Origin: Escherichia coli
Lineage (GTDB): Bacteria > Pseudomonadota > Gammaproteobacteria > Enterobacterales > Enterobacteriaceae
NCBI RefSeq assembly: GCF_003334335.1
Contig: NZ_QOWQ01000068.1
Strand: one strand, 5' to 3'
DNA length: 8,688 bases
Shown here: positions 4,031-5,113 of the stretch, in pieces
Position numbering within the stretch: position 1 is the first letter of the stretch
How the letters are laid out: each line of letters begins with the position of its first letter
The notes under the pieces: model-generated
Databases searched by the model: none
What the model was told of the DNA's origin: nothing
What the model saw: only the letters and a program-made list of their open reading frames with translations
Position numbers and translations under genes: made by a program

Positions 4031-5113
4031 TTAGAACTGGTAAACCATACCTACAGCAACGATATCATCGGTAGCAACGCCAGATGCTTTCGTGAAATCG
4101 CTCTTATCAATCAGGTTGATTTTGTAATCAACAAAAGTGGACATATTTTTGTTGAAGTAATAGGTTGCACCTACATCAATATATTCAACCAGGTCCTGAT
4201 CACCCCACGCACCCAAGTCTTTTCCTTTAGATTGCAGGTAAGCAACGGACGGACGCAGACCGAAGTCGAACTGATATTGTGCAACTACTTCGAAGTTTTG
4301 TGCTTTGTTGGCAATATGGTTATTACCAAAAACAGTCATGTTCTGGGTTTCAGAATAGGTGGTAGCCAGATAGATGTTGTTCGCATCATATTTCAGACCA
4401 GCTGCCCATACTTCAGCATTTTGACCAGATGCATTCAGGCTGTTGTTACCGTAGATAACCTGATTATTAGTGCGGTCAGATTTAGCATAGGTTGCACCTA
4501 CACCGAATCCTTCATACTCATAAGTAGTGGAGAAACCGAAACCATCACCATTAGCTTCAGTTACGTCAGTGCGGTCATTTTTACCCTGATACTGAGCAGC
4601 AAAGTTCAGACCATCAACCAGACCAAAGAAGTCATTGTTACGATAAGTTGCAACACCTGTGGTGCGACCAGTCATGAATACATCTGTTTGGGTCCAGGTA
4701 TCGCCACCGAATTCTGGCAGAACGTCGGTCCATGCACCAATATCGTATGCTACACCGTAGTTACGGCCATAATCGATGGAGCCGTAGTCACCGAATTTCA
4801 GGCCAGCGAAGGCAAGACGGGTTTTATCTTTGGAGGAACCTTGAGATTCAGCGCGGTTGCCTTTGAATTCATATTCCCACTGACCGAAACCAGTCAGTTG
4901 ATCGTTGATTTGGGTTTCACCTTTGAAGCCAAGACGGGCATAAGTAGTATCACCATCATCTGCATCATTAGAGGAGAAGTAGTGCTTAGCATTAACTTTC
5001 CCGTACAGATCCAGCTTGTTACTGTCTTTATTATAAATTTCAGCTGCCTGAGCAGACATCGCCATCAGTACTGATGCAGCTACAGCAGAAATTGCCACTG
5101 TTAATTTTTTCAT
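4031..5113 (-). CDS. nmpC: OmpC/OmpF-family general porin, NmpC-like, apparently intact (360 aa from the ATG at 5113)
   Basis: Signal peptide [23 protein letters not shown] then [16 protein letters not shown]..., ending in the typical C-terminal ...VGMVYQF with terminal Phe. ATG at 5113 (the ORF track extends to a further-upstream start at 5173). No interruption seen in the reading frame. Confidence 0.9.

Follow-up and report, generated by a model that had tools for sequence, protein, structure and literature searches.

The porin locus and its reading frame

The DNA considered here is an 8,688-nucleotide stretch of an Escherichia coli contig (NZ_QOWQ01000068.1), referred to below in its entirety as the window. 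Its porin locus carries a single open frame on the minus strand (4031..5173). From the start codon at 5113 (MKKLTV...) this frame encodes, without interruption, a 360-residue general porin precursor and ends at the stop codon 4031-4033. The resulting coding sequence, nmpC (also called lc and ompD-like; 4031..5113, minus strand), is exactly that of RefSeq WP_000737275.1 in a genome 100% identical to the window (L003 24031-25113). The neighbouring genes lie on the plus strand. One of these, quuD (3459..3842), is convergent with nmpC and encodes a Q-type late antiterminator according to the RefSeq annotation of identical DNA and to PHROG 79. Its product is 78% identical to Q of an Stx1 phage and weakly matches the Q proteins (162 aa) of PDB entries 6jnx and 6p18. 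On the other side, the holin gene essD (5701..5916) is the first gene of the lysis cassette, as judged from open reading frames, RefSeq annotation and PHROG holin families, and is followed by rrrD (5916-6413) and then by rzpD/rzoD. This gene order agrees with the position and orientation given in the first-pass annotation, which had placed the porin gene antisense between Q and the lysis genes. A tRNA scan of the window returned no tRNA.

The porin product covers the entire Pfam Porin_1 model (PF00267, positions 1-337 of 337, E 3.5e-153), is matched by PHROG 410 along its full length (1-360/360) and scores 484-518 bits against the NCBIfam porin models. Its residues 24-360 align with the solved chains of OmpC, OmpF, PhoE and OmpK36/37. 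With all 360 codons open and Porin_1 matched at full length, the reading frame is continuous from signal peptide to C-terminal Phe, as had been noted earlier. Comparison with K-12 DLP12, the solved porins, Pfam and an AF2 model revealed no frameshift, truncation or IS within the gene, and a repeat scan of the window detected no IS-like terminal repeats.

The K-12 gene, carried by DLP12, has the same neighbours, with quuD upstream and essD downstream. By blastn the window is collinear with K-12 DLP12 except for the 1.2-kb IS5B of K-12, which is missing here; together with the empty repeat scan, this bears out the earlier statement that the porin gene contains no IS-like sequence. In K-12, IS5B is inserted 58 nt before the nmpC stop codon, and this IS5 allele has lost its last 19 residues, the final barrel strand and the C-terminal Phe being replaced. 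The disruption of K-12 nmpC, on which the first-pass annotation based its contrast between the two alleles, is therefore real. When K-12 NmpC is rebuilt by removal of IS5 (365 aa, against 360 aa in the window), the two proteins align with 91.4% identity and without internal frameshift or truncation, which answers the K-12 part of the alignment that had been proposed as a check. The flanks of nmpC are 95.6-96.9% identical to those in DLP12. At the position homologous to the IS5 target (4089..4092, located from the K-12 annotation and the reconstruction) the window reads TTCG instead of the TTAG/CTAA of K-12 (ACGAAA in the window, ACTAAA in K-12), so that the IS5 target tetranucleotide is absent from the window allele.

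We consider it highly probable that the segment 4031-5113 is explained as a whole by an intact nmpC/lc allele, an accessory "moron" porin gene of DLP12-type lambdoid prophages. The finding that it is intact is correct but ordinary, the gene being already well known as nmpC of the cryptic K-12 prophage DLP12 (qsr′) and as lc of phage PA-2; some sources call its exact product "outer membrane porin protein LC".

Promoter and 3′ untranslated region

The region corresponding to the nmpC promoter and its regulatory sites, PnmpC (5114..5312, minus strand, -199..-1), is 98.5% identical to that of K-12 over 200 bp. In K-12, PnmpC has been located within -199..-1 and its transcription start site mapped; cAMP-CRP activates it, and OmpR, IHF and MprA repress it (PMC11677980). 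Consensus scans of the region upstream of nmpC detected no strong sigma-70 site at threshold and a single CRP site with 2 mismatches (5224-5239), which is at chance level. We suggest that nmpC would be transcribed from its own sigma-70 promoter within this AT-rich upstream region. Near the 5′ end of the mRNA, a candidate RybB pairing site, CAGUGGC (5094..5100, minus strand, +14..+20 of nmpC mRNA), complements the 5′ seed of RybB. The predicted duplex between nmpC and K-12 RybB (-13.9 kcal/mol) was equalled by 29 of 500 shuffles and supports the pairing weakly; nmpC mRNA is a reported RybB target (PMC3333887).

An intact gene could still be silent in its host, kept off by H-NS or a similar factor, in which case no conversion would ordinarily occur. 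The 400 bp upstream of nmpC have a G+C content of 27-29%, typical of H-NS-silenced DNA, and the promoter scan gave no consensus site. In E. coli B, nmpC is reportedly "quiescent", as Prilipov et al. 1998 call it in their title. However, the near-identical K-12 promoter is active, and a transcript of the nmpC-IS5 fusion has been detected in K-12 by 5′RACE (PMC11677980). In NCM3722, a K-12 strain with intact nmpC, PnmpC drives NmpC to ~2% of the proteome, with induction by carbon limitation, and OmpC is >10-fold lower than in MG1655 (PMC8144880). CFT073 likewise expresses nmpC at 37 C, as RNA and as protein, and the gene is up-regulated at that temperature (PMC12890032). Silence of the window gene is therefore unlikely. 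Lysogenic conversion by an intact porin, suggested in the first-pass annotation, is documented in the literature for NmpC (PMC8144880). It is from such studies of near-identical sequences that we infer expression, regulation and IpeX action in the window's strain.

The 3′ untranslated region of nmpC corresponds to the IpeX RNA region (3864..4030, minus strand, 167 nt) and comprises four stem-loops and an intrinsic terminator, the latter identified by a terminator scan (stem 3893..3876, then a T run, minus strand). It differs little from its counterpart in K-12 DLP12: the 191-192 nt that follow nmpC contain 5 differences (~97% identity), and the length up to the terminator is the expected 167 nt. 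The region has a predicted minimum free energy of -63.2 kcal/mol (z = -9.4). Very few differences exist among the 8 sequences compared for covariation. Rfam searches gave no family for this region, either over the whole window at the gathering threshold or over 3700-5750 at E <= 1; IpeX is absent from Rfam, and the sole match in 3700-5750, to Trp_leader (E 0.39, chance level), lies over the plus-strand terminator. Both the nmpC promoter and the IpeX tail are better conserved than the nmpC coding sequence.

IpeX has been described as an RNA of ~167 nt made within the porin transcript which controls OmpC and for which no complementarity to ompC was found (PMC12197685; PMC10690425). In K-12, IS5 lies between ipeX and the bulk of the nmpC transcript, whereas the two are contiguous in the window, as they are in PA-2, so IpeX should accompany every transcription of nmpC. 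Conversion would thus also involve a co-transcribed IpeX, unnoticed in the first-pass annotation. Like the published RNA, which is known to lower OmpC and OmpF, IpeX would here reduce synthesis of both porins post-transcriptionally. The lysogen would then undergo a porin swap, with NmpC rising and OmpC/OmpF falling, and both its outer-membrane permeability and the phage and colicin receptors that it displays would change.

Position relative to Q and the probable late promoter

Between nmpC and the holin gene lies a plus-strand segment (5482..5571), divergent from nmpC, which most likely contains the late promoter pR′ with its leader and the terminator tR′. This assignment is based on homology and synteny. 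The putative promoter hexamers, TTTACG-N16-TATGCT (5482-5509, plus strand), were assigned by homology and match the consensus at 8 of 12 positions; the promoter scan returned no site at its threshold in the segment. The putative tR′ is an intrinsic terminator given by the terminator scan (plus strand, stem 5540-5561, T run to 5571). Within the segment, 83 nt are homologous to sequences found where Q ends (3′) in ~280 Stx-phage records, and the annotated pR′ layout of phage 21 agrees with that proposed for the window. Phages SfII and cdtI possess the same leader and terminator behind antisense cargo genes. In Lambda_4B5, whose Q is 88% identical, the pR′ segment was unmatched in the stretch examined. 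All three phages carry antisense cargo (Blc lipocalin in Lambda_4B5) whose placement resembles that of nmpC.

With pR′ located beyond nmpC, the porin gene would stand outside the late transcript, as an insert of its own between Q and pR′. The porin cassette (~3792-5480) would have been inserted between Q and the promoter on which Q acts, and prophage expression of the porin would then be independent of late transcription. The first-pass annotation was thus correct in placing the gene in antisense orientation between Q and the lysis genes; the late transcript, however, probably does not read it in antisense, since pR′ appears to be downstream of nmpC. The stx cargo of Stx phages offers a partial parallel: these are also accessory genes near Q, in phages whose Q and pR′ segment are homologous to those of the window, but they follow pR′ in the sense orientation and depend on Q, whereas nmpC lies upstream of pR′, on the opposite strand and with its own promoter.

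The same arrangement could be read as a regulatory device, in which the porin gene would lie inside the Q-dependent late unit and be silenced, by virtue of its orientation, through antisense transcription or head-on collision. Its location on the opposite strand between Q and the holin gene is compatible with this, as are the plus-strand hairpins after Q, which lack T runs; plus-strand transcription entering there would therefore not be stopped before nmpC. Several observations make such silencing quite improbable. The homologue of the promoter-leader-terminator segment which abuts Q in the Stx phages (Q 78% identical) is found in the window at 5482-5571, past nmpC. In SfII, 3 nt separate the end of Q from an antisense gene, and the leader and terminator, both conserved, come after the antisense genes. 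For the S-R-Rz operon of DLP12, reporter constructs set the regulatory region at -121..+650 around the operon's own start site (PMC7918800). In the genomes identical to the window, moreover, the early region of the prophage (pR, N) has been lost, so that nothing known would send transcription through from the direction of Q.

Porin protein, alleles and prevalence

Alignment with K-12 OmpF, OmpC and PhoE assigns the first 23 codons of nmpC to a signal peptide (5045..5113, minus strand), with a mature start at AEIYNKD. Cleavage would occur between AQA and AEIYNK, the mature N-terminus being identical to that of OmpF and PhoE; mature porin chains in the PDB start at query residue 24, and a helix is predicted at residues 2-16 of the precursor. 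The protein ends in ...VGMVYQF, with a terminal Phe. The AF2 model (pLDDT 93) has 16 strands, with residues 120-149 forming a long L3, and Foldseek superimposes it on OmpC, OmpF, PhoE and OmpK36 with query-normalised TM scores of 0.86-0.90 and an rmsd of 1.1-2.2 Å. The L3 constriction-loop motif PEFGGD is conserved, as are the pore-lining charges equivalent to OmpF K16, R42, R82, R132, D113 and E117. The window protein thus combines a full-length profile match, a predicted 16-strand barrel with L3, the constriction residues, and a signal peptide with a C-terminal Phe, which together characterize general porins. We propose that the precursor would be exported by Sec, cut after AQA and inserted by BAM using its C-terminal ...YQF, and that the mature protein would form a 16-strand pore of the OmpF/OmpC type narrowed by loop L3. 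Hindahl et al. 1984, as cited in PMC8144880, reported pore formation by NmpC.

The differences between the window and K-12 alleles are unevenly distributed. Identity to K-12 is 99-100% in the first 360 nt of nmpC and 68-94% in the remainder (per 90-nt block), a jump in identity which indicates that both alleles are mosaics. At the protein level the differences cluster in the predicted surface loops L4-L8, with distinct sequences in L4, L5, L6 and L8, and residue 149 is G in the window and Q in K-12. The 36 alignment positions that differ from K-12 NmpC (substitutions and two indels), together with this change in the constriction, raise the question of whether an open frame might encode a defective protein, mis-folded or non-conducting through allele-specific changes. 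This is very improbable: the differences fall mainly in predicted external loops, OmpF also has G at the position equivalent to 149, the AF2 model is confident, and the exact protein occurs on at least 1000 contigs and identical DNA in many unrelated isolates, so many identical copies being unlike a decaying gene.

The RefSeq/PGAP label "ompC: porin OmpC", applied in every genome listed, and a score of 518 bits against the NCBIfam model "porin OmpC" (NF007841, cut-off 484) might suggest host ompC or an orthologue, but this identity can be rejected, since the model is of the "subfamily" type and not an equivalog, the locus is a prophage with quuD and essD as neighbours and not the site beside micF and rcsD, the genuine ompC of these genomes aligns with the query at ~73% identity over one third of its length, and identity to K-12 OmpC is 63.6%, much as for OmpF (62.0%) and PhoE (64.5%), compared with 91.4% for NmpC. 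OmpC, OmpF and PhoE share with the window porin the predicted fold (TM ~0.9), the cleavage context, PEFGGD, the constriction charges and the C-terminal YQF. They are chromosomal in E. coli whereas the window porin is prophage-borne, and an identity of 62-65% to each of them makes it a separate paralogue; its scores against the equivalog models of PhoE (506, cut-off 599) and OmpF (484, cut-off 583) are also too low. Salmonella OmpD has lent its name to the window protein in some databases and phage annotations. In Salmonella, ompD is chromosomal and not prophage-borne. In the literature, nmpC is regarded as the E. coli counterpart of Salmonella enterica ompD (PMC3333887). PHROGs lists the porin family as "unknown function", and the RefSeq label is "ompC"; together these labels mask a well-characterised conversion gene.

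An intact nmpC is the usual state in E. coli, and the broken copy is found only in laboratory K-12. A near-full-length copy is present in ~46% of complete E. coli genomes, and the majority of the copies sampled are uninterrupted. DNA identical to the window is found in many E. coli chromosomes, and on the contigs that carry it the exact protein is variously named, "porin OmpD" and "outer membrane porin protein LC" being among the names. The Q-porin-S cassette, with the same layout, recurs at 92-98.6% identity in the records of at least 36 sequenced lambdoid phages. The host prophage of genomes identical to the window has decayed to a remnant and occupies the lambda attachment site (ybhC/bioA), not the DLP12 site. 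Few genes of this non-inducible remnant are still intact, and the porin gene is among them.

It is possible, and we suggest it tentatively, that the prophage porin has been maintained and diversified by selection at the level of the host and does not merely survive. Mosaic alleles which differ almost only in L4-L8 and at residue 149 would fit ongoing recombination together with selection for diversity exerted by phages, colicins or antibody. If this is so, allele classes would be distinguished by receptor specificity and perhaps also by antibiotic permeability.

The effects of nmpC, lc and IpeX are already established, and the practical value of the present observation is limited. Nevertheless, the window's strain should display NmpC and make IpeX, and its outer-membrane permeability, its OmpC and OmpF levels and its phage and colicin receptors should thus be unlike those of K-12 laboratory strains. 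This difference is relevant wherever data from MG1655 on antibiotic uptake, phage host range or the proteome are extrapolated.

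Reading frame and identity of the porin gene

The six-frame ORF list contains a single long open frame at 4031–5173 on the minus strand. An in-frame ATG lies at 5173, upstream of the start used in the first-pass annotation; the latter, at 5113 (MKKLTVAIS...), is also the start annotated by RefSeq in 100% identical DNA (the CDS of strain A14, L003 24031–25113). The resulting protein has 360 residues and ends in ...VGMVYQF. It covers Pfam Porin_1 in full (model positions 1–337 of 337, E 3.5e-153), also matches NCBIfam porin models, and aligns end to end, from residue 24 to 360, with the mature chains of the solved OmpC, OmpF, PhoE and OmpK36/37. 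The uninterrupted porin gene that the first-pass annotation had placed at 4031–5113 is thus borne out by the ORF, the RefSeq CDS and the full-length Porin_1 match, and neither the ORF list nor the alignments to porin families and structures, searched for a frameshift, internal stop or truncation, revealed any.

An AlphaFold2 model built on 67 diverse homologues from a representative library (mean pLDDT 93) comprises a signal-peptide helix, 16 barrel strands and a long L3 at residues 120–149. In Foldseek comparisons with OmpK36, OmpC, OmpF and PhoE it gave query-normalised TM scores of 0.86–0.90 and rmsd values of 1.1–2.2 Å. Alignment with the K-12 porins indicates that both the context of signal-peptide cleavage and the mature N-terminus (AEIYNKD) are preserved, and that the L3 motif PEFGGD and the equivalents of OmpF K16, R42, R82, R132, D113 and E117 are conserved. 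The described extent from signal peptide to C-terminal Phe (...VYQF) therefore stands, and nothing in the sequence argues against porin function.

The porin gene lies, as had been proposed, between Q and the lysis genes, with the Q homologue quuD (3459–3842, +) on one side and the holin gene essD (5701–5916, +) on the other. From ORFs and RefSeq annotation, the neighbours match those of nmpC, namely ybcN, ninE, ybcO, rusA, ylcG and quuD on the Q side and essD, rrrD, rzpD/rzoD, bor, ybcV and ybcW on the lysis side. The protein is 91.4% identical to the rebuilt 365-aa K-12 NmpC, and 62.0, 63.6 and 64.5% identical to K-12 OmpF, OmpC and PhoE respectively. The neighbours, together with the identity to K-12 NmpC, identify the gene as nmpC. 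RefSeq labels it 'ompC: porin OmpC', but this label comes from a subfamily-level model (518 bits for a cut-off of 484) and does not make the gene an ompC orthologue; the real ompC and ompF of these genomes match the nmpC query only at about 73% identity over one third of its length. The RefSeq/PGAP name 'ompC' for a prophage porin is an annotation problem, as is PHROG 410, whose 360 positions are matched end to end by NmpC and which is listed as 'unknown function'.

Alignment to K-12 nmpC, suggested in the first-pass annotation as a check, was carried out with blastn. The window is collinear with the cryptic prophage DLP12 over 1785–4069 (96.9% identical) and 4089–8688 (95.6%), and the sole structural difference in this collinear stretch is the absence of IS5B from the window. 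In K-12, IS5B is inserted at a TTAG/CTAA target 58 nt ahead of the nmpC stop codon, and the frame as it stands runs into the element with loss of the final 19 residues, among them those of the last barrel strand and the terminal Phe; removal of IS5 and one target copy restores 365 aa. The target tetranucleotide is absent from the window, which has ACGAAA where K-12 has ACTAAA. Both the IS5 disruption of nmpC in K-12 and the lack of an IS-like sequence in the window gene are confirmed by this comparison.

Proposed position of the porin cassette relative to the late promoter

Six lines of evidence lead us to place the nmpC cassette (approximately 3792–5480) between Q and the Q-dependent late promoter pR'. 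The only convincing plus-strand intrinsic terminator found by a terminator scan between Q and the holin gene lies at 5540–5571. It forms part of a putative promoter-leader-terminator segment (5482–5571, +) composed of TTTACG-N16-TATGCT, the leader GTTAAGAGTGGTTAC and a hairpin at 5540–5561. Eighty-three nt of this region (5481–5563) are 77–78% identical to a segment at the 3' end of Q in about 280 Stx-phage records, and the aligned elements include the TTTACG hexamer, the 16-nt spacer, the TATGCT/TATCAT hexamer, the terminator hairpin and, ahead of it, a conserved leader, GWTAAGAGTGGTTAC. QuuD shares 78% identity with the Stx1-phage Q (L021 141–611) over the first ~120 residues and then diverges, ending 30 residues shorter. 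Blastn gives two collinear blocks, window 3457–3791 with 178–512 of the Stx1-phage locus and window 5481–5563 with 601–682, with 88 nt between them in the Stx phage as against 1689 nt in the window. Finally, the curated record of phage 21 has the same layout: –35, Q-binding element, –10 and pause element, with a terminator following some 50 nt downstream.

The divergence between QuuD and Stx1 Q and the ends of the blocks put the left boundary of the porin insert within the 3' end of Q. We propose with moderate confidence that the cassette is an insert with its own promoter, divergent from pR' and outside the Q-dependent transcript; the late transcript would then probably not cross nmpC. In SfII and cdtI the same leader and terminator directly follow antisense cargo genes, ahead of the late genes, and in SfII the antisense gene is 3 nt from the end of Q, leaving no room for a promoter directly after Q. 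The 5482–5571 segment is also common to SfII, SfIV and cdtI, with the leader and terminator more conserved than the promoter-proximal part. A reporter construct for the DLP12 S-R-Rz operon takes –121 to +650 around the start site as the regulatory region (PMC7918800). Antisense cargo occupies this gap elsewhere: the Blc lipocalin gene in Lambda_4B5 (L005 3594–4118) and two unnamed genes each in SfII (L020 2582–4196) and cdtI (L018 12–1400). From these arrangements, the space separating Q from the late promoter looks like a site at which independently expressed cargo has been inserted repeatedly.

Expression and the IpeX 3' UTR

The 188 nt between the nmpC stop codon and quuD fold, on the nmpC strand, into four stem-loops and an intrinsic terminator (stem 3893..3876 followed by a T run), with an MFE of –63.2 kcal/mol compared to –31.1 for shuffles (z = –9.4). 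Only five positions differ from K-12, and the 3' UTR is 96–97% conserved across alleles whose coding regions are only 87–90% identical. This is the region described as IpeX (3864–4030). Rfam searches returned no family for it, and sequence variation is too small for a covariation test of the fold. IpeX is a 167-nt RNA that forms part of the porin transcript, arises from the phage porin promoter and lowers OmpC and OmpF with no obvious complementarity (PMC12197685; PMC10690425; PMC7177473). With nmpC uninterrupted, IpeX would be co-transcribed with it, which fits the low OmpC of an nmpC+ K-12 strain: in NCM3722, where nmpC is intact, NmpC makes up about 2% of the proteome and increases when carbon is limiting, and the level of OmpC is below that of an MG1655 derivative by a factor of more than 10 (PMC8144880).

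In K-12 the promoter PnmpC, which has a mapped start site, is contained in the 199 bp preceding the start codon. CRP activates it, OmpR, IHF and MprA repress it, and its activity suffices for expression of the IS5 transposase gene located inside nmpC (PMC11677980). The window is 98.5% identical to K-12 over the corresponding 200 bp. Uropathogenic CFT073 shows a strong preference for 37 °C relative to 23 °C in nmpC expression, as both RNA and protein (PMC12890032), and heat resistance has been linked to NmpC expression (PMC5093140). The nmpC mRNA is a reported RybB target (PMC3333887), and a heptamer complementary to the RybB seed occurs at +14 to +20 of the coding sequence, with weak statistical support. 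The published effects of NmpC and IpeX, together with the identity to NmpC, support the original interpretation of an intact conversion porin.

Variation, prevalence and prophage context

All eight nmpC alleles compared (window, rebuilt K-12 and six other chromosomes) are intact and encode 360 or 365 aa. With regions taken from the structure model, the share of variable columns among them is 41% in loop L4, 60% in L5, 42% in L6 and 47% in L8, as against 3% in L3, 0–11% in strand blocks β1–β15 (the β1–β5 block includes L1/L2) and 20% in the last strand, β16. Compared to K-12, the first 360 nt are 99–100% identical and the rest 68–94% per 90-nt block. Since segments of both types are combined in individual alleles, these are recombinational mosaics. 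Constriction residue 149 is G in window NmpC and OmpF, Q in K-12 NmpC and OmpC, and K in PhoE. The pattern is suggestive of that expected of a surface-exposed receptor protein. In two strains, 88-3493 (L016) and TBE6 (L014), intact alleles have neighbours other than Q and the holin gene: one is located between yedK and ybcM and its upstream region is diverged, the other is flanked by IS5-like and IS3-family elements.

Several strains' chromosomes are 100% identical to the whole window. In A14 it lies inside a ~20-kb remnant between ybhC and ybhB/bioA, at the lambda attachment site instead of the DLP12 site. The left part of the remnant carries int, xis and a truncated recT fused to a truncated ren (junction at about window 160/161; region L003 19715–20283, window ~1–283), the middle nin-region genes, Q, nmpC, the lysis cassette, bor and nohD, and the right part a fusion of terminase and tail genes, both truncated. 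The deletion at the recT/ren junction took out the whole immunity and replication region. Since the annotated remnant has no repressor, N, replication or head genes left, it is non-inducible; the porin gene, its promoter and IpeX are among the parts still intact. A second conversion gene, bor (6903–7196, –), encoding a serum-resistance outer-membrane lipoprotein, is also intact, on the strand opposite the late genes. Two overlapping lipoprotein-like genes (769–1329 and 1326–1778, +; 186 and 150 aa, the latter rich in glycine-zipper repeats) occupy the ybcL/ybcM place of DLP12; their matches are PHROGs 12521 and 13877 ('unknown function'), with none among the NCBIfam models, and one of them is named a YajG family lipoprotein in some RefSeq records.

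Many E. coli chromosomes, of human, poultry, pig, wild-bird and wastewater origin, have 100% identical copies of the 1083-nt nmpC, and the exact protein is found on at least 1000 contigs, under names including 'porin OmpD' and 'outer membrane porin protein LC'. Thirty-six phage records contain the Q-porin-holin cassette (92–98.6% identity). Among them is phage 434B (L010, OL657227.1), a laboratory mutant of 434. Its Q-nmpC::IS5-holin segment resembles the K-12 one, with nmpC interrupted by IS5; the record annotates this segment as non-homologous to 434, and the interrupted nmpC and the Q region were most likely acquired from K-12. As 434B forms plaques, this suggests that the cassette, even with IS5 inside, supports lytic growth. 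Strains with IS1 inside nmpC include JNEC-KY204 (H1/H68; copy otherwise 100% identical to the window) and T7Express_Crystal (H85), and in two genomes otherwise identical to the window (H56, H57) an IS1A or ISEc52 has inserted at some point within the 8.7 kb.

In 2,503 of 5,426 complete genomes a single locus spans 80% or more of the nmpC query. Evenly spaced rows of the match ranking provided 37 with coverage of at least 93%: 31 hold a single uninterrupted CDS of 1083 or 1098 nt, two carry IS1 in nmpC (T7 Express, an expression strain, is one of them), and the remaining four, K-12 derivatives or laboratory strains, share the truncated match of K-12. On these counts an intact nmpC is the usual state in E. 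coli and the K-12 allele the exception. The finding thus concerns an already well-known gene in the form in which it usually and widely occurs. The attached IpeX region, the probable position with respect to pR', the mosaic variation concentrated in loops and the decay of the surrounding prophage refine this picture and leave the finding the same in kind.
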